DNA from: a virus
DNA length: 34,864 nt
Strand: one strand, 5' to 3'
Virus record (IMG/VR): IMGVR_UViG_3300045988_013397
Coordinates: 1 to 34,864 of that record
The notes below the pieces were generated by a model. That model ran no database searches and was not told the origin of the DNA. It was given only the letters and a program-made list of their open reading frames with translations. Position numbers and translations under genes: made by a program. Of the stretch, positions 173 through 34,864 are shown in pieces. Within the stretch, counting starts at the first letter, position 1, and every line of letters starts with the position of its first letter.

Positions 173-541
173 TTAGTTTTTGGTGTGTCGTTTTTGCGCG
201 AGTTGCTTGAGGTAGGTTGGGTCTATCTCTCCGTTGTCTGCCTGCTTGTGATGTGGGATGCATAGGCAGATGAGGTTATCATCGTCGGTTAGCAGGTCTG
301 GATTCGTGTTGAGCTTGACTATATGGTGTACTTCCAGTCCCTTGGTGGTGATGATGCCTTTAGCCTTGCACACCTCGCACATGTAGTGCGCATCCTGCCT
401 GACCTGTTCGCGTTTGCGTTGCCACCGATACGTGTTGCGTAGCTTGTCTATGTCGGTCTTACGGTAGTGTCTTGCTGGTCTGTTCGGACATGTGGCGTTG
501 ATGTCGTGCATCCTGCCGCAGTATCCACATGCTTTAAGCAT
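173..541 (-). CDS. HNH endonuclease, terminase/cos-associated type
   Basis: Track ORF 173-571 trimmed to the ATG at 541, which has AAGGAGGTGA 8 nt upstream. Contains CGYCG and CEVC cysteine pairs plus EVHHIVKLN ... CIPHHKQ (HNH motif). Lies upstream of the packaging genes, as in cos phages. Confidence 0.85.
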   Translation of the reverse strand: MLKACGYCGRMHDINATCPNRPARHYRKTDIDKLRNTYRWQRKREQVRQDAHYMCEVCKAKGIITTKGLEVHHIVKLNTNPDLLTDDDNLICLCIPHHKQADNGEIDPTYLKQLAQKRHTKN

Positions 542-948
542 TCCAGTCACCTCCTTGTCTATCACTATCATAGTGTGTTTCTTGAGGGAGTGAGTGAGCT
601 TGGTGGAGAGAGTAAGCCTTAAGAGCTACAGGCAAATTGCTTGTAGGTTAAGGCTTATTGACGGTTTCCGTCGGTCGGTCGTTCGCCAGGCTTCGGTCAT
701 AAGAGTGTTGCATTGCTAACACTGGTGCGGCATACCCCAGCAGGTCGCATTTACATCTTTGATGTGATGGTGTCGGCACCCCGGTTATTCCACCATCGCC
801 TGTTGGGTCGGTTGGACTAGCACCTCTAACGTGTGTATCGGTGAGTGTTAGTCACCGTCCCGTTGACCGAGCTTGGGATATTGCTAGGGAGTTTTCATGC
901 CTCCGCATCCAGTATGTGTGATATACTGGCTTTGTTTGTTACGTATAA

Positions 949-2630: not shown

Positions 2631-3320
2631 CTAGAATAGCGGAATGTTGTCCGGGTCATAGCATACGCGGTTGACTCGTTCTTTGAATTCTGCAGTGGGG
2701 TTATGCCGCACTGGTGGCGTGTCCGCTTTGACGTGATTCCAGAATTCGTCCACAGCGTCCTCGATCATCTCGATCAGCAGTTCGTCACGTTCGACGGAGC
2801 GTTCGATAATCCGGCTATTGCCGATCATGGCGATTAGTTGCGCTTGCCGGCATCCGCTCACCGCCATGTAGTGCATGACTTGGCAGACGTATGATATCGG
2901 CACTGTATCCGGCTCCCAGCATTTGGCGCTAGGTAAGCCTACCGTCTTTATTTCCAGCACTTCCTTCCTGCCGTCCTCGTAGGTCAGCACTCCGTCTAGT
3001 GAGGCTTGCCGCCACGGGTGTCTATCATCCTGAAGCATGTATTGTGGTTCCTCCACCTTCACGTCAGGGTGCCGATAGGCGTACTCTTTGCGTAGTGCAG
3101 ACTCCACGCAATTGCCGAGGATTACAGCCGGCTTGTGACTGATGTCTTCAGGCTTGACGCGCCCGGTCTTCTCACGCCATAATTGGCTGATGGTCTTCCA
3201 GTGATTGACTCCAATGATTACGCCCACGTCTGACCCGCCGACGCCCTTATCACGCTGTGCGTGCCATGCCTTGCTGATTTCCTCCGGCGTGCCGGTAAAT
3301 CGGATTTCCTTGGCGCTCAT
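2631..3320 (-). CDS. YqaJ-like (lambda Exo-type, PD-(D/E)XK) recombination exonuclease
   Basis: GGSDVGVIIG, LDGV, LEIKT and QVMHYMAVSG motifs in the order typical of YqaJ viral recombinases. 229 aa. Confidence 0.85.
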   Translation of the reverse strand: MSAKEIRFTGTPEEISKAWHAQRDKGVGGSDVGVIIGVNHWKTISQLWREKTGRVKPEDISHKPAVILGNCVESALRKEYAYRHPDVKVEEPQYMLQDDRHPWRQASLDGVLTYEDGRKEVLEIKTVGLPSAKCWEPDTVPISYVCQVMHYMAVSGCRQAQLIAMIGNSRIIERSVERDELLIEMIEDAVDEFWNHVKADTPPVRHNPTAEFKERVNRVCYDPDNIPLF

Positions 3321-3589
3321 TTCGTGTCCTCGCTTTGCTTGGTGGTTTCATCTTCAAATGGGGTTGCCAGCCTCACATGGCTATTCATGATCGCGATGCG
3401 ACCCGGATTTTCAAACCACGTAAGGCCTCCTGCGTAATACTCGCATCCGCTAGACGCGTGTCCGTAAGCAAGCCCATAGATCCCGTCACAGCGTTCTTTC
3501 CACCCGCTTTTCAGGTAATATGTTTCACCGTCATCAAGTTCCACGCGCAGACACATGTCATGCGGGAGGAGTTCTAACACACCGATCAT
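3317..3589 (-). CDS. Hypothetical protein
   Basis: Track ORF trimmed to the ATG at 3589 behind GAGGGAGGA. ATGA overlaps at both ends. C-terminus is ...QSEDTK. Confidence 0.6.
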   Translation of the reverse strand: MIGVLELLPHDMCLRVELDDGETYYLKSGWKERCDGIYGLAYGHASSGCEYYAGGLTWFENPGRIAIMNSHVRLATPFEDETTKQSEDTK

Positions 3590-3807
3590 TTCGTGTCCTC
3601 CCTCTTGTATTCGTCTACTAGTTGTTTCCACTTTCTGCTTGCGTCATCAGGGTAGCTGTACCAGCATGTAGAGATGTGTTTTCGGGGGCATTGTAGACGG
3701 TATATCGATTGGAGGTAAACACCGGCCCGTGTAACGCCCTTAATGATTTTGGGTAGCCTGCCGCACATGGGACATCCGTATTCGTTGTGTTTGCGTTTGA
3801 ACCACAT
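3586..3807 (-). CDS. Small zinc-ribbon protein, Lar-like restriction-alleviation candidate
   Basis: 73 aa with CPMCG ... CPRKH ... C spacing and a C-terminal ASRKWKQLV, resembling Lar-family proteins (CPFCGG ... C..C ... A...WN). By-eye similarity only. Confidence 0.45.
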   Translation of the reverse strand: MWFKRKHNEYGCPMCGRLPKIIKGVTRAGVYLQSIYRLQCPRKHISTCWYSYPDDASRKWKQLVDEYKREDTK

Positions 3808-3809
3808 GA

Positions 3810-4061
3810 TTATTCCTTCGTGTCCTCGCTTTGATTCGGCACATCGGACGGCATGGAGCCGCTGTGTCCGAGCATGGAACGGCAGTGGTCGGCTGTCTTT
3901 TTGTATGCGTTGATTTGTCCCTTCACGACACCGTATGCGTCTATTTCATGCTGCATCAGAAGAGCGTCCGCTAATCTCAGTCCTTCCACTTCTAGCTGTT
4001 CGCACCAGTCGATGACTTCTTGCAGGGTCTTGTCCTTTTCGGTGACGTTAGTCGCCATCAT
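3810..4061 (-). CDS. Hypothetical protein
   Basis: 83 aa. ATG ATG start behind AGAAAGGAAAGA. C-terminus is ...QSEDTKE. Confidence 0.6.
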   Translation of the reverse strand: MMATNVTEKDKTLQEVIDWCEQLEVEGLRLADALLMQHEIDAYGVVKGQINAYKKTADHCRSMLGHSGSMPSDVPNQSEDTKE

Positions 4062-4233
4062 TCTTTCCTTTCTGCGTGTACCACCATTTGATGATTTCTT
4101 CTTGTCGTGGCGTGGTCATAGGCAGCCCATAGTCTTCGGCTATGGCTTTGCCCCATGCTGAGCCGACGTGGGGATTGCCTAGGCTTCGATCGCTTCGGCA
4201 AGCCCCACAAGGTCGATATCCTGCTCGATCATT

Positions 4234-4434
4234 TCACATTCTGCTGTCTGCCATGATGCACATCAGGTCAAGCACTGGGATGTCATCGTAGCTGGTGAGG
4301 TTGAGGTCAACGGCGGTGTCGGCTAGGGATTCACAGGCCGTGTTTTGGTCGAATTGCTCCCAGATGCCGGGCACGCCAGCGTAGTGGTTCTCAAGCCATT
4401 CGTAGGCTGTGTCGTAGTTGATGTCGTCGTTCAT
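4234..4434 (-). CDS. Very acidic 66-aa protein (net charge about -13), first gene after promoter-like element A
   Basis: Track ORF 4234-4566 trimmed to the ATG at 4434 behind AAAGGAA. 14 D/E versus 1 R. Confidence 0.6.
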   Translation of the reverse strand: MNDDINYDTAYEWLENHYAGVPGIWEQFDQNTACESLADTAVDLNLTSYDDIPVLDLMCIMADSRM

Positions 4435-4452
4435 TTCTGGTTCCTTTCTCGT

Positions 4453-4508
4453 GTGTTTCCTTGTTTGTAACTCTGACTGTACACCTATATTAAGGCGACA
4501 TGCCGAAG
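4453..4508 (-). promoter_or_regulatory. Promoter-like conserved element A (paralog of 6302-6359)
   Basis: Minus-strand CTTCGGCATGTC-N9-TAGGTGTACAGT-N5-TTACAAACAAGGAAACAC aligns at roughly 75% with element B. TACAGT is the candidate -10; there is no TTGACA-like -35. Confidence 0.45.
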
Positions 4509-4513
4509 AATCG

Positions 4514-4690
4514 TCAAACACGACACCTTGATTCATACTCTTCGACACCACGCACATACTCCACACTCATGCCGACGATCTCAGCGACAGTCTCAGCCGG
4601 ACATCCAAGGTCGAGATAATGCACGGTAAGCCGGTATGTCCTCGACTTCGTATCGTGCGTCGTTTCACGTATCTCATGCTTCCTTGCCAT
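4514..4690 (-). CDS. Small HTH DNA-binding protein
   Basis: Track ORF trimmed to the ATG at 4690 (TAAAATG junction with the upstream gene). Contains the HTH-like segment GCPAETVAEIVGMSVEYVRGV. Confidence 0.55.
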   Translation of the reverse strand: MARKHEIRETTHDTKSRTYRLTVHYLDLGCPAETVAEIVGMSVEYVRGVEEYESRCRV

Positions 4691-4691
4691 T

Positions 4692-5066
4692 TTATTCCTT
4701 CGCGAAATAGATTTCGGTCTCATACTCGGCTCCCCTAGCCAGTCGCGCCGGGATATTGCCGATGTACATTTCCTTTGCTTTGGTCAGCCAGCATCGTTCG
4801 CGCTTTCCGTCTACCTTCGCCCAGACAATGCAGCCTTCCGAGAGGAAAAGCCGCGCTTCCTCCGGATCAAGCTTGACGATCATTGGCTTCGGTTTCCGAA
4901 GTTCTGCGATTTCACTCGCCATCTCGCTCATGATCAGGCTGGACATGCGCTTATCGTCCTTCGAGCGGGCGATTTCGCGTTTTCGTGCTTCGTCGCGTCG
5001 TTTCCAGTGGCTTCGGGTTCCTGTCTGTGTGTGTGCTGTGGTCACGCCTCTGAAATTCGCTTTCAT
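4692..5066 (-). CDS. Hypothetical protein
   Basis: 124-aa ORF. RBS AAAGGAGAAACC upstream of the ATG at 5066. Confidence 0.6.
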   Translation of the reverse strand: MKANFRGVTTAHTQTGTRSHWKRRDEARKREIARSKDDKRMSSLIMSEMASEIAELRKPKPMIVKLDPEEARLFLSEGCIVWAKVDGKRERCWLTKAKEMYIGNIPARLARGAEYETEIYFAKE

Positions 5067-5096
5067 GGTTTCTCCTTTAATGGGGGGTGGGAAGTC

Positions 5097-5321
5097 TTAG
5101 TCGCGTGGAGCGAACCTCACGATCAGCCACAATGCGGTGGCGATGTACACGCCTTCCACCATGAGCGCGGCGGTGGTGCTGCCGCCATGCCATGTGAGCA
5201 TGAGTGTGGATGTGACGATGAGGGCGACCACCGCGAGGGCGAATTTGATGCGGCGGAGCGTGTAGTTCGGTTTTCGCGTCTTCTCCCGCTGGTCTTCGAG
5301 CCAGTAGTCGTGGTCGGTCAT
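5097..5321 (-). CDS. Small membrane protein (two TM helices)
   Basis: ATG at 5321 behind GGAGGCAACCAA; the alternative ATG at 5345 makes an ATGA overlap with the upstream gene. Hydrophobic segments IKFALAVVALIVTSTLMLTW and VYIATALWLIV. Confidence 0.6.
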   Translation of the reverse strand: MTDHDYWLEDQREKTRKPNYTLRRIKFALAVVALIVTSTLMLTWHGGSTTAALMVEGVYIATALWLIVRFAPRD

Positions 5322-5341
5322 TTGGTTGCCTCCAGTCCTTT

Positions 5342-5554
5342 TCATCTTGTGTTTCCTGTCATTTCGTTGAGCGCGTATGCGATGCCTTCGATTTCCGCTG
5401 GCGTGAAGTCCGCGAGGGTGACGTCTTGGATGCCGTCAACGAGACTGGCGCTGCCGTCCTCATGGAGGCGCACGTAGAAGCCGCTTGATGCGAGCAGCAG
5501 ACATCCGGCCTCGTGGAGTGTCGGCGGTGCTGGCGGATTGAGTGTCGGGTTCAT
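5342..5554 (-). CDS. Hypothetical protein
   Basis: 70-aa ORF. ATGA overlap with the upstream gene; RBS AAGGAGAAAACAA. Confidence 0.55.
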   Translation of the reverse strand: MNPTLNPPAPPTLHEAGCLLLASSGFYVRLHEDGSASLVDGIQDVTLADFTPAEIEGIAYALNEMTGNTR

Positions 5555-5793
5555 TTGTTTTCTCCTTTCTTGGTGTTGACTTCGATGACATAGACGCGAT
5601 GATAACCAACTGGGATATCGTATGCGTCCATGTCGATATACAAGCGTGGCGTTGGTCGTATTTCGCCTTTTTCATCATCGTAGAATGACGCTCCAACGAT
5701 CTCGCCGGTAAAAGAACGGATTGGCTCATCGCCGAAAACCTGCATGTAGCTGGCAAGATTATTCAATTTTTTCTGGGTATCCGTCTTTCTCAT
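5551..5793 (-). CDS. Hypothetical protein
   Basis: Track ORF trimmed to the ATG at 5793 behind AAGGAGAAAACAA. ATGA overlap with the upstream gene. Confidence 0.55.
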   Translation of the reverse strand: MRKTDTQKKLNNLASYMQVFGDEPIRSFTGEIVGASFYDDEKGEIRPTPRLYIDMDAYDIPVGYHRVYVIEVNTKKGENK

Positions 5794-5960
5794 TTGTTTT
5801 CTCCTTTTGCTTTTACGATAGATTCCAGTACTTTGGCGAGGGTTTCGATGGTGTCTGCGCAAGCGTCGAGCAGGTCGTCCACTTCGTCGGTGTCGTAGCC
5901 TTCGCGGAATCGGTGTGTTGTGATCTTTGCTGCTCTGACTTCCTTGGGTGTGAGCATCAT
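5790..5960 (-). CDS. DivIVA/GpsB N-terminal-domain miniprotein (56 aa)
   Basis: Track ORF 5790-6179 trimmed to ATG ATG at 5960 behind AAAGGAA. LTPKEVRAAKITTHRFREGYDTDEVDDLLDACADTIETL matches the DivIVA N-domain consensus LTPxDIxxxxFxxxxRGYdxdEVDxFLD. Confidence 0.7.
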   Translation of the reverse strand: MMLTPKEVRAAKITTHRFREGYDTDEVDDLLDACADTIETLAKVLESIVKAKGENK

Positions 5961-6021
5961 GATGGTTCCTTTCGGTTGGAGTATATGGAGGGTTGCGCGG
6001 TTGCCCCCGCCGCTATGGTTG

Positions 6022-6273
6022 TCACCAAGTCTGGGCGAACTGTTCGACCTGCTCGGCGCTGAAGGTCTTGGCGGGGTCACGGTAGGCTTCGTCGGCTGTG
6101 GTGAAGGCGTAGGACGTGTAGTAGGCGTTGCCTTCGTCATCGACGGCCTGATCACGGTCGATGCTCTCCCAGCTGCCACCTTCCTCTTTGGCTTCGAGCG
6201 TATAGTCCTCGCTCATCCAGTAGTGGTAGAGATCGGCGTAGGTGCTGGTCTTGGTGAATTCGATGCTGGTCAT
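6022..6273 (-). CDS. Very acidic, aromatic-rich 83-aa protein (net charge about -13), first gene after promoter-like element B
   Basis: Track ORF 6022-6510 trimmed to the ATG at 6273 behind AAAGGA. 18 D/E versus 5 K/R, with 8 Y and 3 W. Confidence 0.6.
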   Translation of the reverse strand: MTSIEFTKTSTYADLYHYWMSEDYTLEAKEEGGSWESIDRDQAVDDEGNAYYTSYAFTTADEAYRDPAKTFSAEQVEQFAQTW

Positions 6274-6301
6274 TTTCTTTGTCCTTTCGTTTGGTTGGTT
6301 G

Positions 6302-6359
6302 GTGTTCCCTTGTTTTGTAATTATCACTATACACCTATCAACGTTTTGACACGCCGAAG
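6302..6359 (-). promoter_or_regulatory. Promoter-like conserved element B (paralog of 4453-4508)
   Basis: Minus-strand CTTCGGCGTGTC-N10-TAGGTGTATAGT-N5-TTACAAAACAAGGGAACAC. It lies immediately downstream of the terminator at 6365-6395. The GGTGTATAGTG core is shared with the Cro promoter -10 region at 11571-11581. Confidence 0.45.
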
Positions 6360-6364
6360 GCATG

Positions 6365-6395
6365 AAAAAAGGCGGCACGCCTAGAACATGCCGCC
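6365..6395 (-). terminator. Rho-independent terminator ending the early replication operon
   Basis: Minus-strand GGCGGCA-tgttctaggcg-TGCCGCC followed by TTTTTT (plus-strand A-run at 6365-6370). Confidence 0.7.
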
Positions 6396-6491
6396 AATTG
6401 CATTTTCGCCGGTGCCCCGGCACGGGTGATGCTACCGCTAGCAGAGGGTGGTGCGCATCCTTGGAGAGGCGTTCTGCTTTGTAAATACCGA

Positions 6492-6794
6492 TTATACACG
6501 CTTGAGCCACCTGCGCAGGATCTTCGCCGGAGACGTACGCTCATAATGCAGGTGCCTTGCTATCATCTCCCAGCTCTTACCCTCCAAGAACCGCATGATG
6601 CAGATTAACCGCACGCGATCATCAGGTATCGAAATTATCCACGCCATCAAGTCGAATCGTCTCTGCTCCACCTGCTCCAAGTGCTCAGCGAGCAGTCGGC
6701 GGCAGGACGGCTCAAGCTCCACAGCCAATAGCGAGCGCAGCCGCTCCGCTTCCGTCTTAAGCAGTCGAGCCTGAGCCAAGTCACGCTCCGTCAC
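6492..6794 (-). CDS. Sigma-70 region-4-like small regulator (candidate middle/late transcription activator)
   Basis: 100 aa. GTG start in a GTGA overlap with the DnaC-like gene. Helical N-terminus, then RVRLICIMRFLEGKSWEMIARHLHYERTSPAKILRRWLKRV, resembling sigma r4 / DUF1492-type phage regulators. Confidence 0.5.
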   Translation of the reverse strand: MTERDLAQARLLKTEAERLRSLLAVELEPSCRRLLAEHLEQVEQRRFDLMAWIISIPDDRVRLICIMRFLEGKSWEMIARHLHYERTSPAKILRRWLKRV

Positions 6795-7636
6795 AAGCCC
6801 AACAGGCCGCGAAGCTCGGCCACATCATCATGCGCCTTCACCCTGCGCCTGTCAGCCCCCTCGACGTGGAAGGGCAAGCACATCTCCAGCAGGCGACTAT
6901 ACACTCGCGCCTTACGCACATCCGAAGGGCTGGAAAGCTCCTGAGCAGTCAGATTCGTAGTCACGATAAGCGGCAGCCCGGCGCGATACCGGCTGTCTAC
7001 CACATTCATGACCTGCTCCCACATGTAATCCGTATCCCTCTCAGCCGCCAGATCATCGATCACCAGCAGCTTGAAGCAATTAAGCCGGTCGATATACCGT
7101 TGACGCCCCTCAAAGCTCTCAGACAGCTGATTAACGATCCTGCTGAAATTGGTCATCATGCACGGCACACCACGATTAATCAGCTCATTGGCGATGCACG
7201 CTGCCGCAAAGCTCTTGCCGCAGCCGACAGTACCAAAGAGCAGCAAGCCCTTGCCCTTAGCCTTGAAAGCCTCGAAATTATCGACATAATTCCGAGCCAC
7301 CATCATCGTCTTCTCGCTCATTCCATCATCAGCATCGAAAGTCCACTTGAGCATTTCAGCATCGGGGAAGCCCGTCCGTCTCATACCCTCCAATCGGTAC
7401 TTGCGCTCCTCTGCACGGCGTGCTTCCTCACGCTTCAGACGCGCTTCTCTAGCACACTTGCATTGGATCGGCAGCAGCCGTTCGCCACCACCAAGCCAAT
7501 GCTCTTCCCTGTGCTGCTTGACCGTGTGGCATTTGCCACAGTAGAGCAATCCGTCTTCTCCCCTGTAATCTCCTTCCTGCATTCCATTGATCGCACTCGC
7601 TGCTTTCACGATTCCCTCGATTCCACTCATGTCCAT
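6791..7636 (-). CDS. DnaC/IstB-like AAA+ helicase loader
   Basis: Walker A FGTVGCGKSF, Walker B LLVIDDLAAE, and IVTTNL. Cysteine-rich N-terminus (CGKCH ... CKC). RBS AAAGGAG. Confidence 0.9.
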   Translation of the reverse strand: MDMSGIEGIVKAASAINGMQEGDYRGEDGLLYCGKCHTVKQHREEHWLGGGERLLPIQCKCAREARLKREEARRAEERKYRLEGMRRTGFPDAEMLKWTFDADDGMSEKTMMVARNYVDNFEAFKAKGKGLLLFGTVGCGKSFAAACIANELINRGVPCMMTNFSRIVNQLSESFEGRQRYIDRLNCFKLLVIDDLAAERDTDYMWEQVMNVVDSRYRAGLPLIVTTNLTAQELSSPSDVRKARVYSRLLEMCLPFHVEGADRRRVKAHDDVAELRGLLGL

Positions 7637-12045: not shown

Positions 12046-13524
12046 ATGGCATACGCAATATACTTGAGGAAATCCCGCATAGATGAAGAAGCAGGGATAG
12101 AGAACACACTAAGCAAACACGAAACGATGCTGCGCGACATGGCCGCACGCATGGGCATACACATAGACGAAACGAACATCTACCGCGAAATAGTATCGGG
12201 AGAAAGCATAGACGCACGCCCGCAAATGCAGCGACTATTGAAAGCCGTCGAAATGGGACTATATACGGGCGTTCTGTGCGTCGAACTCGAACGCCTCAGC
12301 CGCGGAAACGGTGAGGATCAGGCGCGAATACTCCGCACGTTCCAGTTCAGCGGCACGAAAATACTAACGCTTAACAAGGTGTACGACCTTTCCAGTGATG
12401 ATGACTTCGACGAGGAATTTTTCGAGTTCGGGTTGTTCATGTCACGCCGCGAATACAAGACGATTAAACGCCGCCTGCTTCGCGGCAGACTCCAAGCGCA
12501 ACGCGACGGGTATTTCATCGGAAGCGTGCCACCATACGGGTACGGCAAACGCAAGGATGGAAAAGGGTGGACGCTATGCCCAGACCCACACGAGTCGCAC
12601 GTCGTGCGCCTCATATTCGACCGATACGCTCAAGGCGCAAAGATCAACGATATATTGCGCGAACTCCAAGCGTCCGGTGTCAAGCAACGCACGGGCAACG
12701 ACTTCACGCGCACACGAATAGGCGAAATACTGCGAAACCGAACATACCTCGGGGAACTGCAAACCAAGAGGAAAATAAAAAACCGCCGAATAATCGACGG
12801 TGAAATAAAAGAAACCTATATACGGAACAGCGGCATGGAGTACGTGCAAGGCAGACACGAGCCGATAGTCAGCGCAGACACGTTCGACCAATGCGCCGCA
12901 CGCCTGCGCACGATGGAAACACGCACACGCTACGCACACACAAACCGCAACCCGTTGGCCTCACTGGTCGTATGCGCTCAATGCGGCAAGACCATGCAGC
13001 GCACCAACGGCGCACAAGCGGAATATTTGATATGTAAGACGTTCGGCTGCACGACAAAGAGCACGAAACTTGACATAGTGGAAAGGCTTACGGTGGACGC
13101 CATACAGGCTGAATTGGAACGCCTGACCTACGTGTGGGCGGGATACGAGACAAAAGCGAATGACAACACCAACGAGCTGCAAGTCCTAGAGGCAGAGATA
13201 GACAGACGGCAGAAAATGCTCGAACGCGCCTGCGAAGCCTACGAAACGGGAATATACGATAGATCCACATATTTGCAAAGGGTGCAAAAGGTCAACGCGG
13301 AAAAGGCGGAACTGCTTGCACGGCTCGAAACTCTCCAAGACTCCGAACCGGAACACGACATGAAACGAATCCCGGTACTATCGAAGGCATTGGACGAATA
13401 CTGGACACTCGACAGTGAAAACCGCAACCGCCTGCTGAAAGGCATGGCGGAACGAATAGAATATGAAAAGACCGAGCGTGGCACGGGATTGAACCCCCGC
13501 CTGCGCGTAACTCTTAGAATCTAA
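12046..13524 (+). CDS. int: Large serine recombinase (integrase)
   Basis: N-terminal resolvase domain AIYLRKSR (catalytic Ser), recombinase domain, zinc ribbon CAQCGKTMQR ... YLICKTFGC, and a C-terminal coiled coil. 492 aa. Confidence 0.95.
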   Translation: MAYAIYLRKSRIDEEAGIENTLSKHETMLRDMAARMGIHIDETNIYREIVSGESIDARPQMQRLLKAVEMGLYTGVLCVELERLSRGNGEDQARILRTFQFSGTKILTLNKVYDLSSDDDFDEEFFEFGLFMSRREYKTIKRRLLRGRLQAQRDGYFIGSVPPYGYGKRKDGKGWTLCPDPHESHVVRLIFDRYAQGAKINDILRELQASGVKQRTGNDFTRTRIGEILRNRTYLGELQTKRKIKNRRIIDGEIKETYIRNSGMEYVQGRHEPIVSADTFDQCAARLRTMETRTRYAHTNRNPLASLVVCAQCGKTMQRTNGAQAEYLICKTFGCTTKSTKLDIVERLTVDAIQAELERLTYVWAGYETKANDNTNELQVLEAEIDRRQKMLERACEAYETGIYDRSTYLQRVQKVNAEKAELLARLETLQDSEPEHDMKRIPVLSKALDEYWTLDSENRNRLLKGMAERIEYEKTERGTGLNPRLRVTLRI

Positions 13525-21369: not shown

Positions 21370-23925
21370 TTATCCGTAGATGGCGGTTGCAACCGTCTTC
21401 TTGACGAAACGCCCAGCCACCTCGTCATCCAACACCACGCGCACATCCTGCAAGGCTTCAACCAAAGCATTAATCAGGTTAGACTGTGAGCCGTAGCCGT
21501 TGGACGCTTGCTGTGCCGCCGACACGCCACCAAGATCATACGTCTGTGCGAAAGCATCAGAGCTAGGCATTGCATCAATCATCTGCTTCGACACATTGCC
21601 CATCTCGTCCTCGAAGCCGACACCAATACCCTCAGCCAAATACTTTCCGACTTCATCACGCATCAACCGCGAAGGCGAGTGAATACCGAAGAAACCCTTG
21701 ATATCCTGCATAATCCCGTGAACCCAACCGCTGACCTTGTCACGAAGCCAGCCAATCGAATTGCTGATGCCTTCCCACACGCCCCTGACGATATTCGCGC
21801 CGACATCAAGCACCATACCCGGAGCCTGCCTGAGCGCCCCGACAATCGCACTCACGACATTTCTCGCGCCACTCACAGCATTGCCGATACCCCTCACGAT
21901 ACCCGCCGCAAGCTGCACCATCATCTGCAAGCCCGTACTAAGAATCTCAGGCAAATGCGCGCTGAGCGTCCTCACAATCTTCACCACGATCTGCGGGAGC
22001 ATGGCGACCAATTGCGGGATAGCCTGAGTAATACCTTGAATCAGTGCAATCAGGATCTGGATACCGGCAGTGATAATCAAAGGCAGATTATTTAGCAGCA
22101 CGTCGGTGATCTGCATGACGATACCGGGCAGCATCTGGATAAGCTGCGGCAAGGCTTCGACAATGCCATTGACCAGCGCGAGCAGCAGCTGCACGCCCGC
22201 TTGAATAATCAACGGAAGATTAGTCAGCACCACTGATGCCACTTGTTGCACAATCGTCGGCAGCATCGCGATTAATGTTGGCAGTGCTTCGGTGATGCCC
22301 TGAATCAGGCTGGTCAGCATCTGCATACCCGCATCAATCAGCTGTGGTAGAAGCGTGAGCAGGGCTTGCACGATCTGCGGCAAGGCGGCAGTCAGCGCAC
22401 TCATAATCTGCGGCAATGCTGCGACAATCGCCTGCACCACCTGCGACAAGCCACTCACAATACTTGGTATTTGAGCCGTGATAAGCGGCAGCAGCTGTGA
22501 CGTAAGCATGTTCACCGCTTGCGGAAGCAGCTGGACAGCCGCAGTAACCATGCCGTTAATCAAAGGCGCGATACGCGGCATGATATTCCCAGCGAAAGTG
22601 TTGACTGAATCAACAAGATTGGCGATCAGCCCGTCCATATTCGCGCCACTATCGGACATGCCAGCAAGGAGATTCTGCCAGCTAGCCTTCATGGCGTTCA
22701 TCGAGCCTTCAATGGTCGTGGACGCTTCCTTAGCCGTCGTGCCCGTGATACCCATTTGAGTCTGCACGGCATGAATGGCCTTCACCGTATCGCCAAAGTC
22801 ACCTATCGTGTAGTGTTCACCAGTCAGCTTCTCAGCGTCCGACATAAGGCGTTCCATCTCGGCCTTCGTGCCACCATAGCCGAGCTTCAAATTATCGAGC
22901 ATGGCATAATTCCCACGAGCCAAGCTCTGGTATGTCTGCTGGATAGAGTCGATATCAGTGCCCATTTTGTTCGCGTTATCGCTCATGTCCTGCACGGCTG
23001 TATTGCCCAGTTCAGCCGCCGCCTTCGTGTCACCACCAAGCGACTGGATAAGCGACGCGCTGAAACTGGTAACGGTGTTCATGTATTCGTTCGCAGACAT
23101 GCCAGCCGCCTTATACGCATTATTAGCGTAATCCTGCACGATGCCAGCGGAATCTTTGAAAAGCGTCTGTACGCCGCCCACAAGCTGCTCATTCTCAGAG
23201 TAGGCTTCGATAGCCTGCTTGCCGACATTAAGCACAGCGGCACCAAGATTCTTAAGGCCATTGACAGCCGCACCAATGGCACTGGACGCAAGATTAGCCA
23301 GCACATTCTTGAAGACGGTATACCCGCCGCTAGCTTCCTGCGCCTGCCTCCCACTCTTCGCGGCTTCCTCGCCAAGCTCACTAGCAGACTTGCCAGCCTT
23401 ATCCATATCAGGCGACAAGCTCTTAATCTCAGCGTCAGTCTTGTTGATATCCGCCTGAGCATTATTCATCTGCGTGCGCATCTTGCTCATGGCGATCTCA
23501 TTGGCATTGACAGCAGCCGAAGACTTATCCACATCACGCGCTAGATTCGCCACGACTTTCGCCTGAGCCTGATACTCCGGTGACGTTTTGCCAAGCGTCG
23601 CCTCGATCTGCGCCAGCTTCTGCTTCTCAGCATCATACGACGCGACAAGCTCCTTATGCTTCGTGTTGTTCGCCGTGTACTGTGCGCTCATGGCGCGATA
23701 CTGTGCATTAAGGACGCTCAGTTTTTCCTTCTGCGCAGTCATCTTGTTATTCAGCGCTTCAGTCCTCGCAGTGAGCGCCGCCTGAGACGTGTCGCTCTTT
23801 GCATACTGGGAGCTGACGACTTTCATTTCAGATCCGACTTCACGCAGATTCTGCGAGATACGTGCAAGCGCCTGACGATAGGCGCTCTCACCTTGTAACT
23901 TAATCGCGCCGCCGAAACCACTCAT
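21370..23925 (-). CDS. Tail tape measure protein
   Basis: 851 aa with a coiled-coil N-terminus, hydrophobic tandem repeats and a C-terminal GIHSPSRLMRDEVGKYLAEGIGVGF (TP901-type core). It occupies the position after the G/GT chaperone. Confidence 0.95.
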   Translation of the reverse strand: MSGFGGAIKLQGESAYRQALARISQNLREVGSEMKVVSSQYAKSDTSQAALTARTEALNNKMTAQKEKLSVLNAQYRAMSAQYTANNTKHKELVASYDAEKQKLAQIEATLGKTSPEYQAQAKVVANLARDVDKSSAAVNANEIAMSKMRTQMNNAQADINKTDAEIKSLSPDMDKAGKSASELGEEAAKSGRQAQEASGGYTVFKNVLANLASSAIGAAVNGLKNLGAAVLNVGKQAIEAYSENEQLVGGVQTLFKDSAGIVQDYANNAYKAAGMSANEYMNTVTSFSASLIQSLGGDTKAAAELGNTAVQDMSDNANKMGTDIDSIQQTYQSLARGNYAMLDNLKLGYGGTKAEMERLMSDAEKLTGEHYTIGDFGDTVKAIHAVQTQMGITGTTAKEASTTIEGSMNAMKASWQNLLAGMSDSGANMDGLIANLVDSVNTFAGNIMPRIAPLINGMVTAAVQLLPQAVNMLTSQLLPLITAQIPSIVSGLSQVVQAIVAALPQIMSALTAALPQIVQALLTLLPQLIDAGMQMLTSLIQGITEALPTLIAMLPTIVQQVASVVLTNLPLIIQAGVQLLLALVNGIVEALPQLIQMLPGIVMQITDVLLNNLPLIITAGIQILIALIQGITQAIPQLVAMLPQIVVKIVRTLSAHLPEILSTGLQMMVQLAAGIVRGIGNAVSGARNVVSAIVGALRQAPGMVLDVGANIVRGVWEGISNSIGWLRDKVSGWVHGIMQDIKGFFGIHSPSRLMRDEVGKYLAEGIGVGFEDEMGNVSKQMIDAMPSSDAFAQTYDLGGVSAAQQASNGYGSQSNLINALVEALQDVRVVLDDEVAGRFVKKTVATAIYG
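21883..22350 (-). repeat. About 3.5 tandem copies of a 132-nt (44-aa) unit inside the tape measure gene
   Basis: Units begin LPQLIDAGMQMLTSLIQGITEALPTLIAMLP..., LPLIIQAGVQLLLALVNGIVEALPQLIQMLP..., LPLIITAGIQILIALIQGITQAIPQLVAMLP... and LPEILSTGLQMMVQLAAGIV... Confidence 0.8.
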
Positions 23926-24494
23926 CGCGACACCTCACTTTCGTACTTCCAATGGTATCCACCTGCCGTGTGGCTTTTGCCCTTGCAACACTTGATTATC
24001 TCAGAATGACCAATACCTGTAGCTCGTTCAGCATTTCTAGTGCTTGAGAACACGTCCCCAGTCTCAATGCAGACTACTTTTTTCTTCGGCTTCCTAGATT
24101 CCATGAGATGCTTTGTCTCGGCACTATGGTGTTTCCCAAAGAATGGATTGCGATTGCCTGAATTATGCTCAGAAAGCTTCACTCTTGCCGATTCACTTGT
24201 CTCGACAATTTTTCCACCTTGGAGAGCATTGTATCCGACTTCAGGATTAGTCAAATCCCATTTATCAATCAATCTTTTTTCTTGATATGATGCTTCTTCC
24301 TTTGATAATCCAGTGAAGAGGATTTCGTGGGTGAAGTCCTCCCACCCATAGCGTTCAATGTCAGCCCAGAAGCGACTATGCCGCTTGTAGTGTTTCCCGT
24401 TTTGCCACCTGTCATAGGGGCTTTGCTTTGTCACACCGACATATTTCTTACCGTTGTGTTTGTTCGTATGGCAATATACGGTATATCCAGACAC
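23922..24494 (-). CDS. Free-standing GIY-YIG homing endonuclease (I-TevI-like, with NUMOD3-type repeats)
   Basis: GYTVYCHTNKHNGKKYVGVT ... R ... E is the GIY-YIG core. HNSGNRNPFFGKHHSAETKHLM is NUMOD3-like. GTG start behind GGGGGTG. ATGA overlap with the TMP start. Confidence 0.9.
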   Translation of the reverse strand: MSGYTVYCHTNKHNGKKYVGVTKQSPYDRWQNGKHYKRHSRFWADIERYGWEDFTHEILFTGLSKEEASYQEKRLIDKWDLTNPEVGYNALQGGKIVETSESARVKLSEHNSGNRNPFFGKHHSAETKHLMESRKPKKKVVCIETGDVFSSTRNAERATGIGHSEIIKCCKGKSHTAGGYHWKYESEVSR

Positions 24495-30660: not shown

Positions 30661-32340
30661 CTAGATTACTTGGATGCCAACACCGCCATCACCTAGCACA
30701 TAATCCTGCTGGAGTAAGTACATGGCGTTTATAAGGCTGACTACCATATCGACTTTGCCCTTCGATTTCTTCTTGTGGACATAAAGATTCATGTTTGAAT
30801 CGTAAGTGCATCGGGCATTCTGAAAGTTAATCTCAAGCAAGCGGTTCGGCGCATACGCGAATTCTCCCTTGAGTATCTTCTCCTTGAGCCATTTGGTAGG
30901 CGGATGAAGCACCGAGCTATGCTGTCGAATCTCGACAGTGTTGTATCCCGCTTCATCCAGCTTCTGCGCTGTAGACATGGCATTCCACCGGTCATAGCCG
31001 ATGGCTTGGATATGCACGCCGTACTTGTCCTCAATGCCGAGTATCCAATCCTCCACGGCTTTATAATCGATGATCTTGTCGCCACAAGCAATGCACTTCC
31101 CGGCATGGATATACTCACGGTAGTCGATTTTCTCATAAGCGTTCTTTTCATCGATACGATCAGCAGGGATAAAAGCCACAGAATCAGCCAATACCGTCCC
31201 GTCATCGTCCACGCTCACCATCGACACCGAAGTGTTATCGTTGGTCATGGACAAGTCAAGCCCCAGATACACCGTGCGCCCCTGCCAGTCGATATGGCTG
31301 ACCTTGCACGCTTGCACATCAGCCACGTCCACGTAAGTCTCCGTGCCCTGCCCTTGGTAAATAATATTACAGTGCTTGGTCAGGAAATTCTCACGCGCCG
31401 ATTCGACAGCGATAGCATACGCACGCTTCTTCTTCAAGTCCTCCCAGATCTCCGGAATCTCTAGAGATACCGGGTTAGCTTGGCGCAGCACAAGGTCATC
31501 ATCCATCCAGTTCTTCGTCTCGTCAGGCTCATAAAGCAGCGAGAATCGCGTCTCGTCCTCAATCAAGCCATCAAGCACCTTCTTACAATATCCGACTTCA
31601 TCCTCAAAAGGATTGTCAATAGTCGGGTACTTGGTGCTGATGATAAATCCGAGCTTGTTGAGGATGTTGAGCTGTCCAGATCTCATGGCTTCGATAGCAT
31701 ATGATGTCGGCAGTGCCCCCACCTCGTCGGCACAGAAGGCGTTAGGCAAGCGCCCATCCATACGGCTAGTCGAATAACTCAAAGGAATGTACGTAGTGCT
31801 CAATGGCTTGAACGTGATTGAATCGCGTAGAATCTTCCACCTAGCCACGTCCTTGAACGCATACACGTCTGGCGAGCTTTTAAGCGTCTCCGAGATAGCC
31901 TCACGCACCTCACGGCTAAGAGTACCGTCAGGGGCTACACTGTAGAATTTCGAGAATCGCGGCTCCGTGAGAAACAGCAGAATGAAAATCGTAGCGATAG
32001 TATACGTCTTGAAATTTTTACGCGCGATCTCAAGCACACACGTCTCGTACTTCCGCTTCGCCGGATTATCACGCCGCACAGTGCAAAGAGTGGCGATATA
32101 GAAAAGCCATTGATATCCGGTAGTGCAATCGTACAATGATTGCCCGGCACGCAAGCCCTTCGGCATACGCAACACCTTGAGAATCGCGTACAATTGCTTC
32201 ACCTTGCGTCGGCTCACGAAATAAGTCTCGTCCTTGCCATCGCAAATATCAATCCACGCTTGCATCTGCTTACGAACATACTTCGGCGTGGTCGGCTTAT
32301 CGATGCACTCAATGCAGAACTCGTATCCCTTATTCTTCAT
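30661..32340 (-). CDS. terL: Terminase large subunit (Terminase_1 family)
   Basis: Track ORF 30661-32364. The ATG at 32340 has GAGGA 8 nt upstream; ATGs at 32346, 32349 and 32364 are alternatives. The position after TerS and overall sequence resemble the Terminase_1 family by eye; no ATPase or nuclease motif was individually located. Confidence 0.95.
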   Translation of the reverse strand: MKNKGYEFCIECIDKPTTPKYVRKQMQAWIDICDGKDETYFVSRRKVKQLYAILKVLRMPKGLRAGQSLYDCTTGYQWLFYIATLCTVRRDNPAKRKYETCVLEIARKNFKTYTIATIFILLFLTEPRFSKFYSVAPDGTLSREVREAISETLKSSPDVYAFKDVARWKILRDSITFKPLSTTYIPLSYSTSRMDGRLPNAFCADEVGALPTSYAIEAMRSGQLNILNKLGFIISTKYPTIDNPFEDEVGYCKKVLDGLIEDETRFSLLYEPDETKNWMDDDLVLRQANPVSLEIPEIWEDLKKKRAYAIAVESARENFLTKHCNIIYQGQGTETYVDVADVQACKVSHIDWQGRTVYLGLDLSMTNDNTSVSMVSVDDDGTVLADSVAFIPADRIDEKNAYEKIDYREYIHAGKCIACGDKIIDYKAVEDWILGIEDKYGVHIQAIGYDRWNAMSTAQKLDEAGYNTVEIRQHSSVLHPPTKWLKEKILKGEFAYAPNRLLEINFQNARCTYDSNMNLYVHKKKSKGKVDMVVSLINAMYLLQQDYVLGDGGVGIQVI

Positions 32341-32713
32341 CGTCATCATCCTCGGTTTCGCCATTAATCAACGCAAGCAGCGGGTCAACATCCCCGCCAT
32401 CACGCTCAGCGTCAGACTTGCCGAAACCTTGAATGATCTTCATAAGGGTTGTGACAGTGCGGTTGGCGCTGTCAGTGGTCGTATTGTATTCACGAACAGC
32501 CGGGTTAGTGTAAAGGTTCTTGCGTCCTTTCACATACTCCTTCTTCACCAGCATACCGTCTTGCTCAATCGACTTTTCCAAGTCGTTGAGAATCTTGATT
32601 TGCACTTGATAGCGTTTAAAGGTGGTGACAAAGAAGAAATTAGTCTGGACACCTGTTTCCTCGGCTATTTGCAGAATCTCGACAGCCTGTTCCTGAAGAT
32701 TCTTGACACCCAT
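32330..32713 (-). CDS. terS: Terminase small subunit (P27 family)
   Basis: Track ORF trimmed to the ATG at 32713, which overlaps the MetK-like stop as TGATG; the ATG at 32728 is an alternative. YTNPAVREYNTTTDSANRTVTTLMKI and an acidic C-terminus are typical of P27 TerS. Confidence 0.8.
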   Translation of the reverse strand: MGVKNLQEQAVEILQIAEETGVQTNFFFVTTFKRYQVQIKILNDLEKSIEQDGMLVKKEYVKGRKNLYTNPAVREYNTTTDSANRTVTTLMKIIQGFGKSDAERDGGDVDPLLALINGETEDDDDEE

Positions 32714-33543
32714 CAGAACAACCCCCATTCCGCAAGCTTCTCGAAACCGCCGACAGTATCGAAAACATAGTCCCGCGCGATCCGCACGATATCGGCATAG
32801 GGTACGCCGTCCACCTCGCGATCGCCAATGGCACAGCATAGTGAGACAACCTCACCCGTCTTCTGTGCGAGAAGATGCGCATAGATATTCACCGAAACGT
32901 CCGCCTTGCTCAGGTCTTTTCCGTGCAAGCCGCCACCAGTCACAGCGTCACCCATGTCGGAACCGAGCTTGCGATTCGTCGCGCCCGTGTCCACATCTGT
33001 GCCACCAGTCCACGAGCCAAGAGGATTCACGATGACCTGATATCCGGAAGGATTACGCCCGCAAACCTCAAGCCCCTTTGCAATGCGCCCGGTGAGCTCC
33101 TTGTCATCGGCGCATGACTGACAGGCGATGAACTTCCCGTCAGTCATGACGAACTTCCCATCGGTCGGATACTCCTCGTAAAGCGACCGCACGATCCGGG
33201 AAATGTCCTTCTGCTCGCGAGTTAGCGGCACGCCCTTGAAAATGCCATTGTCGCCGCACTTGATGCCGTCCGACTGGTTATCGGCAAGGTGCGGGTCTTG
33301 AGGCACTTCCTTGTAATCAATCTCGATGCCATCAACTCCAGTGATGCGACTCACAACACTTCTGATGACAGCGTCCGGAATCGGCACACTAGTCTCCGCG
33401 ATTACATGGCACACGCCATGCCCGATAAGCACCTCGACAGCGATACGAGGTGACATATCAAGTTCATACGCATAATCTACGAGAGCACCAGCAATCCTGT
33501 CAGCCACCTTGTCAGGATGACTTGGATTAACTTTTTCAATCAT
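32713..33543 (-). CDS. metK: Truncated methionine adenosyltransferase (MetK-like SAM synthetase), 276 aa
   Basis: Track ORF 32713-33666 trimmed to the ATG at 33543 behind GGAGGATTGATAAGA. Motifs [39 protein letters not shown] and [16 protein letters not shown] are colinear with E. coli MetK motifs. Confidence 0.8.
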   Translation of the reverse strand: [276 protein letters not shown]

Positions 33544-33548
33544 TCTTA

Positions 33549-34745
33549 TCAATCCTCCACTTTCACAGCTTCCATGCCAGTAAGCGTCTCCCACCTGTCG
33601 ACAATCACGTCGGCATACTTCGGATCGTACTCCATAACTCGCGCCCTGCGCCCATTCTGCTCGCACGCGATAATAGTCGTGCCACTGCCACCGAACAGGT
33701 CTAAAACGACATCGTTCTTCGCGCTGCTGTTGCGAATCTGATAGTCGAACAATCCGACCGGCTTCATCGTCGGATGCAGGTCGGCCTTTGTCGGCCTATC
33801 CAAATCAATGACAGTAGTCTGCTTCCTGTCACCGTACCAGTTATGAGAGCCAGTCCCCTTCCAACCGTAAAGACACGGCTCATGCTTCCACTGGTAATCC
33901 TGCCACCCACATGACGGGCGGTTCTTATTCCAAATCAGCTCCTGCTTGACTGTAAGCCCCGCATCCTCGATGGTAGTTACGAAATTCACGACCTCCTTGC
34001 TCGCATACCAGACATAGAACGCCGCCCCGTCAGCCATCACATCGTAGGCATTGCCAAACGCTGCGAGAAGGAAATCATGGAAGACACCGGAATCCATGCT
34101 ATCATTCTCGATTTTCATAGCCTTGGCGCTCTTGCCAGTGTAATCGACATTGTAAGGCGGATCAGTGATAAGAAGCGCAGCGCTCTCACCACCTCCTGCC
34201 TGCATGAGCTTGCGAACATCATCCGATTTCGTACTGTCACCGCACATCAAGATATGGTTGCCGAGCCTGTACACATCGCCCAGCTTCGTCACCGGTTCAG
34301 CTGGCGGCTCGGGAACATCCTCGTCAGCATCACTACCAGCCAAATCACTGCCAATGCCAAGATCGCCAAGGTCTACATCGTCGAAACCGAAATCACTCAT
34401 GTCAATGTCATCTATGCCGTTAAGCTCGATATCCAACTTGCCCAAATCCCACTCGGCAAGCTCAGCCGTCTTGTTATCCGCAAGACGAAACGCCTTCACC
34501 TGCTCGGGCGTGAGATCATCAGCGACGATGACAGGCACCTTATCCAAGCCCAGTTTCTTCGCAGCCTTCAACCTCGTGTGACCTGTGACGATAACACCGT
34601 CAGCATCAACGACAATGGGCACCTTGAAACCGAATTCCTTGATGGAAGCCGCCACAGCGTCCACCGCACCATCATTAATACGAGGATTATTAGCATACGG
34701 GTTCAAATCCGCTGCATTCCTGTATTCCACTTTCAGGTTGTCCAT
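33549..34745 (-). CDS. ParB-N-domain / DNA methyltransferase fusion (N6-adenine or N4-cytosine, DPPY type)
   Basis: ATG at 34745 behind AAAGGA; the track uses the TTG at 34754. N-terminal ParB-like box (NPRINDGAVDAVAASIKEFGF ... VTGHTRLKAAKKLG). Motif IV ITDPPYN. Motif I LDLFGGSGTT near the C-terminus. Confidence 0.9.
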   Translation of the reverse strand: MDNLKVEYRNAADLNPYANNPRINDGAVDAVAASIKEFGFKVPIVVDADGVIVTGHTRLKAAKKLGLDKVPVIVADDLTPEQVKAFRLADNKTAELAEWDLGKLDIELNGIDDIDMSDFGFDDVDLGDLGIGSDLAGSDADEDVPEPPAEPVTKLGDVYRLGNHILMCGDSTKSDDVRKLMQAGGGESAALLITDPPYNVDYTGKSAKAMKIENDSMDSGVFHDFLLAAFGNAYDVMADGAAFYVWYASKEVVNFVTTIEDAGLTVKQELIWNKNRPSCGWQDYQWKHEPCLYGWKGTGSHNWYGDRKQTTVIDLDRPTKADLHPTMKPVGLFDYQIRNSSAKNDVVLDLFGGSGTTIIACEQNGRRARVMEYDPKYADVIVDRWETLTGMEAVKVED

Positions 34746-34779
34746 GAATATCAATCCTTTCTATATCGTTTGCTTGGCA

Positions 34780-34864
34780 CCTAAATTTTTATCAAGCTTT
34801 ACCACGCTTTATTCAAGTTTATCAACGGTTTTCAGCACGTTATCGAGGGTTTTTCCAAAAAAAC
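34780..34864. repeat. Terminal direct repeat, right copy (identical to 1-85)
   Basis: See the left copy at 1-85. Confidence 0.9.

Follow-up and report, generated by a model that had tools for sequence, protein, structure and literature searches.

The window analysed here is a stretch of viral DNA of 34,864 nucleotides (IMG/VR virus record IMGVR_UViG_3300045988_013397, at its full length), in which an open reading frame (ORF) on the minus strand (32713..33543; ATG 33543-33541, TGA 32715-32713) encodes a protein of 276 aa plus stop that is, by its sequence, a homologue of the MetK-type methionine adenosyltransferases (MATs), also called S-adenosylmethionine (SAM) synthetases. We consider it rather probable that this short-form MAT is a compact and active enzyme that provides the phage with a SAM supply under its own control, used for methylating progeny DNA. 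The gene is part of a cassette at the head of the packaging genes, with the local order HNH, methylase, MAT, TerS and TerL on the minus strand, the methylase and the MAT forming a pair; this cassette is an ordinary example of a known and widespread module, real but not new. Phage metK is among the most frequent auxiliary metabolic genes (AMGs) of the gut virome, yet it has been counted by KEGG label only, and the PHROGs entry for the short family, phrog_1569, is still labelled as of unknown function. What is added here is that the short form keeps the aligned MAT catalytic residues, travels with a ParB-domain methylase beside terminase genes, and has chromosomal relatives behind SAM riboswitches; combined, this evidence leads to a testable reading, namely a phage-controlled SAM supply for self-methylation.

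The assignment to the MATs is carried by sequence profiles as well as by the predicted fold. The N-terminal domain profile S-AdoMet_synt_N (PF00438) was matched at residues 3-68 with 41.5 bits (cut-off 33.1), a phmmer search of the PDB sequences returned 45 distinct MAT sequences (best E 7.5e-12), and hhalign against E. coli MetK gave a probability of 97% over residues 3-241; over its full length (residues 1-276), the protein matches the phrog_1569 profile at 9e-69. The AlphaFold2 monomer model (pLDDT 80, pTM 0.81) has the three-domain MAT fold, and the top 50 PDB neighbours retrieved with it by Foldseek are all MATs (E to 9e-13, TMq 0.58-0.70, about 0.67), while among the viral structures of BFVD nothing significant was found. 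A preliminary description, made from the letters of this DNA, had proposed that MAT motifs occur in the correct order and that a proper alignment should give a significant MAT match; both expectations were confirmed, the first by the two phmmer stretches, which cover the quoted motifs, the hhalign alignment and the residue map given below, the second by PF00438 and by Foldseek (E about 1e-12).

Using the residue numbering of E. coli MetK that omits the initiator Met, the hhalign map places query H9, D11, K12, E37, E50, Q82, D98 and W178 on E. coli H14, D16, K17, E42, E55, Q98, D118 and F230, and query D185, R191, K192, D196, K209, D210, K213 and D215 on D238, R244, K245, D249, K265, D266, K269 and D271. 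The aligned catalytic and ligand-binding residues, whose roles we take to be those familiar from the MetK literature, are identical to the E. coli ones except for the replacement of F230 by W178; 17 such positions are intact in the window MAT and an eighteenth (K165) is matched by inference only. The mapped catalytic residues are invariant in a 30-sequence family alignment (A1), and among 35 representatives no more than 37-57% identical to the query, they are retained in 29-35. Two segments stand out, the HPDK motif (aa 9-12; 33508..33519, minus strand), which is invariant in A1 and aligns to H14/D16/K17, the catalytic acid and Mg/phosphate ligands of the E. coli enzyme, and the active-site loop region (aa 183-215; 32899..32997, minus strand) with D185, R191, K192, K209, K213 and D215. 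Neither the want of a MAT match nor a loss of catalytic residues, either of which had been named beforehand as speaking against the assignment, was observed, the aligned residues being retained.

The ORF had been called truncated. Its shortness relative to cellular MetK, put at about 100 aa, is real (about 108 aa in comparison with E. coli MetK), but the label is misleading, since the protein belongs to a conserved short-form family with chromosomal, riboswitch-linked genes. It had also been suspected that one subdomain would prove to be missing, which is not the case: all three MAT domains are kept, and the shortening is spread over trimmed loops and shortened helices, together with the absence of the last ~44 MetK residues. 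Assuming the E. coli domain boundaries to be those of Takusagawa et al. 1996, the aligned positions kept are 110 of 124 in the central domain, 78 of 117 in the N-terminal domain and 73 of 136 in the C-terminal domain. In the secondary structure predicted by the AlphaFold2 model, two of the three beta-alpha-beta-beta-alpha-beta units are complete, and the third is reduced.

This short form, typically about 260-276 aa long, is a conserved family that is widespread among the temperate phages infecting gut Bacillota and is also chromosomal in some Bacillota. A word-indexed search yielded at least 8000 clusters at 90% identity, the best 120 of which are 260-293 aa long and 61-99% identical to the query, and an exhaustive search of the 50%-identity representatives gave 198 at E <= 1e-30; because of the number of clusters, the conserved length and these 198 representatives, the family is not regarded as a collection of decayed genes. 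A pseudogene or an assembly truncation was likewise considered for the window MAT and rejected, as thousands of clusters share this length and these motifs, and independent samples have yielded identical contigs. Several of the clusters are named "S-adenosylmethionine synthetase" by JGI, and the NCBI names of members are either the same or "...N-terminal domain-containing protein". Among GenBank phages, 29 records contain the short MAT, including the streptococcal Javan prophages, Gardnerella vB_Gva_AB1, Terrisporobacter TPDSL_ph1 and many Ca. Heliusvirales genomes. Natural fusions of MAT and methylase were sought among the longer family members (P0122 and others) and none was found; the extra length of these members is devoid of Pfam domains or stems from a chimeric call (P0202). 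Six loci with the short MAT (L086, L088, L148, L154, L163, L165) are located in metagenome-assembled genomes (MAGs) labelled Methanobrevibacter, Phocaeicola, Prevotella and Bacteroidaceae, and because the distribution is otherwise Bacillota-wide, these are probably phage contigs mis-binned into the MAGs.

Within the window, the MAT gene is tightly embedded between its neighbours. Upstream of it lies the gene for a ParB_N-fused beta-class N6/N4 DNA methyltransferase of 398 aa plus stop (33549..34745, minus strand; ATG 34745, stop 33551-33549), composed of a ParB N-terminal domain (aa 15-85; 34491..34703, minus strand; ParB_N PF02195, 29.8 bits, cut-off 26.3) and an N6_N4_Mtase catalytic domain (aa 191-382; 33600..34175, minus strand; PF01555, 83.1 bits, above its cut-off), with, in its translation, a DPPY motif (LLITDPPYN) followed by the SAM-binding motif FGGSGTT. 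The same protein matches the DNA methyltransferase family phrog_498 at 1.4e-157 and the PADLOC Type II MTase model PDLC03229 at 2e-122 over residues 5-395; no restriction enzyme was identified beside it. The methylase gene was thus correctly recognised in the preliminary description, which gave the distance from it to the MAT start as 6 nt; the spacer between the methylase stop and the MAT ATG is 5 nt. The ribosome-binding site ascribed to the MAT gene, GGAGGA, is present (33553..33558, minus strand; junction sequence GTGGAGGATTGATAAGAATG) and sits within the last methylase codons, 9 nt ahead of the MAT ATG. A 41-codon GTG extension of the ORF had been trimmed, and this is justified because the extension falls within the methylase gene and because all 29 homologues in A1 share the MAT N-terminal start (M1, E3, K4 and V5 being invariant); gene calls made independently on identical contigs also give 276 aa.

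At its other end, the MAT gene overlaps the gene for the small terminase subunit TerS (32330..32713, minus strand), as had been claimed, the MAT TGA sharing the sequence TGATG with a TerS ATG. The exact TerS start is ambiguous, for it may be either this ATG at 32713 (127 aa) or ATG 32728 (132 aa), 15 nt upstream and with a 16-nt overlap, which is the start chosen by the gene callers on identical contigs (L166); the two genes overlap with either start, and a strong Shine-Dalgarno sequence precedes neither. TerS was recognised by phrog_13845 (4e-47) and by the TerS family phrog_5110 (3.7e-4), with a weak match to PF05119 Terminase_4 (19.8 bits). The large subunit TerL (30661..32364, minus strand; TerL_nuclease 131.6 bits, TerL_ATPase 30.7 bits; phrog_9, 1e-105) overlaps the end of TerS by 35 nt. 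The intergenic leader of the methylase gene (34746..34864, continuing at 86-172 on the circular genome; minus strand) contains an AAAGGA ribosome-binding site ~9 nt before the methylase ATG. A sigma-70 consensus scan found no promoter in this leader, and the counts of a promoter and terminator scan of 32000-34864 are no higher than in shuffled sequence. Beyond the leader, 206 nt ahead of the methylase gene across the circular junction, there is an HNH endonuclease-like ORF of 132 aa (173..571, minus strand; PADLOC ZorE HNH models, 2e-7), the counterpart of a 122-aa gene called ahead of the methylase in L166/L167; an HNH gene is also found ahead of TerS in L001, L003 and L004. The window ORF is similar to HNH genes found alongside the terminases of related phages.

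How often the MAT gene and the methylase gene occur together was surveyed, as the preliminary description had proposed, in 160 related loci (the best 80 viral and the best 80 genome loci), and a ParB-methylase homologue is directly beside the MAT in 109 of them. Adjacency is seen in 60 of the 80 viral loci (with the methylase downstream of the MAT in 52 and upstream, as in the window, in 8) and in 49 of the 80 genome loci, and it persists after dereplication of the MATs (83/128 at 95%, 47/84 at 85%). The order of the window, methylase followed by MAT, accounts for 16 of the 160 loci; there, the next gene belongs to a terminase family in 8 of the 16, comprising several non-homologous TerS or TerL families, and to phrog_2412, of unknown function, in seven others. 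Where the MAT precedes the methylase, TerS (phrog_83) lies just before the MAT in 86 of 88 loci, and the annotated order in L001-L004 is HNH, TerS, MAT, DNA methylase. Because the adjoining terminases belong to unrelated families, the methylase-MAT pair acts like a mobile unit of two genes that comes to lie next to terminases, and it is the conserved adjacency from which a functional link between the two proteins is argued. Where a ParB-methylase is absent from the vicinity, the genes around the MAT include C5 and D12 methylases as well as radical-SAM enzymes, all likewise SAM users. The tight and probably co-translated link of MAT to methylase at the head of the packaging operon, as first described, is therefore upheld by the junctions and by the survey (109/160; 83/128 after dereplication); the accompanying statement that the pairing is "not a standard phage module" is wrong, given these counts, the TerS neighbour in 86/88 loci and the published cases (PMC4260502, PMC3485107, PMC11283538, PMC12180181). 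The pairing is among the most recurrent cassettes of temperate gut-Bacillota phages, conserved and not unusual.

The same neighbourhood might be read as pointing to packaging, in that the MAT and the ParB-domain methylase would act together with TerS or the HNH protein, e.g., by labelling the pac/cos region or by recognising it. In either gene order, the MAT gene adjoins TerS, which is its upstream neighbour in the 86 loci given above, the MAT stop of the window overlaps the TerS start, and ParB_N domains bind or nick DNA. The HNH/TerS-TerL region is, however, a common site for accessory genes, the chromosomal copies of the short MAT function without any terminase, 41% of Heliusvirales lack the cassette (PMC11283538), and the proposal has its sole basis in gene adjacency; a packaging role is, in our judgement, barely probable.

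Cassettes of this kind have been described before. In the S. pyogenes phage Phi1207.3, a SAM synthetase (orf29), a ParB-like/DNA methylase (orf32) and a C5 methylase (orf33) are located ahead of the terminase genes, and its authors proposed as early as 2014 that the synthetase supplies the methyl donor (PMC4260502). The window shares with Phi1207.3 the SAM synthetase and the ParB_N-N6/N4 methylase upstream of the terminase genes, but orf29 is 353 aa long with all three Pfam MAT domains, and both order and spacing differ, an HNH gene lying in between. Module B of Tn6164, a Thermoanaerobacter-type prophage, comprises HNH, TerS, SAM synthetase and an N4/N6 DNA methylase (PMC3485107), and K00789 is present in 58.9% of the Ca. 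Heliusvirales genomes (PMC11283538). Like Tn6164, Heliusvirales, the Javan prophages and vB_Gva_AB1, the window combines terminase, MAT and ParB-methylase in an HNH/terminase module, its MAT adjoining both the ParB-methylase and a terminase gene and being 58-64% identical to theirs. In contrast to their order TerS-MAT-methylase, that of the window is reversed, and its TerL is only 23-26% identical to theirs; furthermore, its genome measures 34.8 kb, versus about 50-60 kb for theirs. Membership of the window phage in Ca. Heliusvirales was rejected as unsupported on account of this TerL identity and the small genome.

Chromosomal relatives of the short MAT provide a further line of evidence. In four non-phage loci, a SAM-I riboswitch (RF00162, 54-61 bits, cut-off 44.4) is situated 60-75 nt upstream of a short MAT gene (L119 4843-4926; L121 4855-4938; L125 1793-1877; L149 4252-4342); these genes encode 260-266 aa, and their neighbours are mutL and rplU-rpmA, nrdD-nrdG and an FGGY kinase. 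In Firmicutes, metK is classically controlled by SAM riboswitches, so the cells with this arrangement treat the short protein as a SAM-synthesis gene; this linkage is a new point that supports real SAM synthesis by short MATs, and in some Bacillota it may be the short form that serves the cell as its SAM synthetase. An Rfam scan of the window returned no riboswitch or other RNA family, and none was found in a riboswitch search of 14 phage loci; because they are devoid of the riboswitch, the phage copies would escape SAM feedback at the RNA level.

These findings can be extended to a broader proposal, which is possible but in our view doubtful: the short MATs would be a distinct minimal class of SAM synthetase, serving as the riboswitch-controlled housekeeping MetK of some Bacillota (Erysipelotrichaceae, uncultured Clostridia), which phages would have captured without the riboswitch as an unregulated SAM source and which would work with the ParB-domain methylase, possibly touching it, during packaging. 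If true, no smaller MAT scaffold would be known, and the human gut virome would contain a widespread anti-restriction device of the "bring your own cofactor" type; a MAT scaffold minimised by nature could be of interest to enzymologists and to makers of SAM analogues.

Other chromosomal short MATs were seen in different surroundings. The gene directly follows a tRNA gene in L106 (4882-10430) and also in L100, L109, L111, L112 and L138; in L106, argS lies upstream and the hrcA-grpE-dnaK-dnaJ operon downstream, HrcA being the downstream neighbour in 4 such loci. Integration at the tRNA may have left this gene there as a remnant or as a domesticated copy. In L093, L094 and L097 (~3160-7250), which are Christensenellales and Clostridiales MAGs, the short MAT is flanked on one side by an MCRA-family (oleate hydratase-like) gene and on the other by a radical-SAM/SPASM enzyme, so that in this non-phage setting, too, it is paired with a SAM consumer.

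Several observations weigh against an active MAT that serves DNA methylation. The central-domain profile S-AdoMet_synt_M (PF02772) gave no match at E <= 0.1, the corresponding region being present structurally and shorter by about 34 aligned residues; the C-terminal profile PF02773 reached a sub-threshold 15 bits (cut-off 25) at profile positions 2-53 of 138 only, and the C-terminal domain lacks about half its residues. The curated MetK equivalog TIGR01034 was failed by a wide margin (46.8 vs 309.4 bits), and because of this score the window MAT would best be described as a member of a separate short-form subfamily, distinct from the canonical MetK orthologues. Set beside bacterial MetK (E. 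coli, PDB 1fug/7loo; Ureaplasma MAT 6rkc), it is alike in fold, motif order and aligned catalytic residues and different in its length, in the trimming of loops in all domains and in both of these profile results. Residues 178-212, which form the active-site loops, are the sole low-confidence part of the monomer model (pLDDT < 50), and an active site at a homodimer interface is putative, as the model is that of a monomer. The triad D128-G129-K130 is invariant in A1 and probably matches E. coli D163/K165, the alignment being ambiguous there. Three divergent members of 261-267 aa (P0192, P0193, P0196; 39-41% identity to the query) have lost 7-9 of the 18 catalytic positions and may represent a pseudoenzyme branch of the family. 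Moreover, about a third of the related loci have no ParB-methylase within 5 kb, a literature search found no biochemical, structural or methylome work on a phage or short-family MAT, and the phenotypes ascribed to a truncated prophage metK are host traits (aggregation, biofilm), not anti-restriction (PMC8223999).

Some of these points would suit a non-catalytic mimic of MetK, a short protein that binds host MetK, SAM or ATP and thereby modulates host SAM synthesis. The heavily reduced C-terminal domain and the divergent members that lost many catalytic residues are in line with it, and the T3 SAMase targets MetK via hetero-oligomers (PMC8406200). We nevertheless hold a mimic to be highly improbable, for the 17 aligned catalytic positions are intact and invariant in the close family (with K130 also invariant and its match to K165 inferred), and chromosomal members stand under a SAM riboswitch in housekeeping contexts, which suits a synthetase and not an inhibitor.

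The experimental work on a shortened phage MetK points in another direction. The S. agalactiae prophage 12/111phiA encodes a truncated MetK that is without 135 aa relative to E. coli and retains the activity domain; its deletion and complementation altered aggregation, chain length and glycocalyx, and Javan-like prophages have been described as similar to 12/111phiA (PMC8223999). By this description and through its Javan relatives, to whose proteins the window MAT is 57-61% identical, the 12/111phiA protein can be set beside the window MAT as another shortened prophage MetK; in distinction to the window, its metK lies in a relB-yafQ-endonuclease-metK region, and host and phage differ. The window gene might, therefore, be a host-directed auxiliary metabolic or lysogenic-conversion gene that provides SAM for polyamines, autoinducer-2 (AI-2) or general methylation, its adjacency to the methylase merely reflecting a shared insertion hot-spot. 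For this possibility, 12/111phiA offers the only experimental support of its kind; in virome papers, metK figures as a general AMG (PMC12180181, PMC11938785), in one of them as the second most common in gut phages, with 8.6% of all AMGs (PMC12180181); the window phage appears to be temperate (serine recombinase, 12046-13524); and the ParB-methylase is not adjacent in 51 of the 160 loci. We consider it unlikely all the same, because the MAT gene lacks both a promoter-like site and a terminator for itself and is translationally coupled as part of the packaging operon, an operon that lysogens normally keep silent, and because adjacency to the methylase in both orders and beside non-homologous terminases exceeds what a hot-spot would lead one to expect.

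For a MAT dedicated to the methylation of progeny DNA, the following course of events is proposed. Lying between the HNH and terminase genes, the cassette would share the transcript of the packaging genes, with coupled translation, so that MAT and methylase are probably both products of the packaging operon, presumably late in infection. The MAT, which is probably active on the strength of its aligned residues, would catalyse the reaction ATP + L-methionine -> SAM + PPi + Pi, free of the riboswitch feedback of the host; the ParB-domain methylase would use the SAM to modify newly replicated DNA ahead of packaging; and full methylation would shield the progeny DNA from restriction in the next host. 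Late co-expression of the cassette and its effect on methylation and restriction are presumed here.

SAM made by the phage could also act on the defences of the current host, either by refilling a pool that a defence system depletes or by swamping a defence that senses low SAM or a SAM signal. That SAM levels matter for BREX and type I restriction-modification (R-M) is indicated by the T3 SAM lyase, whose action on the SAM economy of the host bears on R-M and BREX (10.1101/2023.02.27.530186; PMC8406200), and the phage copies are without the SAM riboswitch seen on the chromosomal ones. The lyase resembles the window MAT, as proposed, in being a phage enzyme that acts on host SAM, but it destroys SAM and inhibits MetK against methyl-dependent defence and has no sequence or fold relation to MAT. 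A counter-defence role of the window MAT is very unlikely: no SAM-depleting defence system was found in the literature searches, extra SAM would favour the SAM-dependent BREX and type I R-M systems, the MAT has no defence-system match in PADLOC, and a position in a late operon is poor timing for early action.

The phage itself is represented completely. An exact direct repeat of 85 nt is found at both window ends (1-85 = 34780-34864), and independent human-gut assemblies contain the identical protein on contigs (34,834 and 34,906 bases) that begin at other points of the genome; owing to the terminal repeat and to these contigs, the window is taken as a complete circular phage genome of 34,779 bp. 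Among the proteins encoded are a large serine recombinase, a GH25-CW_7-LysM lysin, ERF, SSB, dUTPase and siphovirus tail proteins, a set in keeping with a temperate siphovirus whose host is a Gram-positive bacterium of the gut. Portal, S78 protease and major capsid genes come after TerS-TerL. No match to the cassette was obtained by megablast among 50,697 phage records, where its relatives are recognised at the protein level only.

The serine recombinase (12046-13524, plus strand; Resolvase, Recombinase and Zn_ribbon_recom domains) is followed by one ORF downstream, and these two genes lie on the strand opposite to nearly all others; the recombinase is likely the integrase of this temperate phage. 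A further ORF of 190 aa (23922-24494, minus strand), to which a weak GIY-YIG mark and a NUMOD3 mark are attached on the identical contig L166, has the look of a homing endonuclease inserted just upstream of an ORF of 851 aa, presumably the tape-measure gene.

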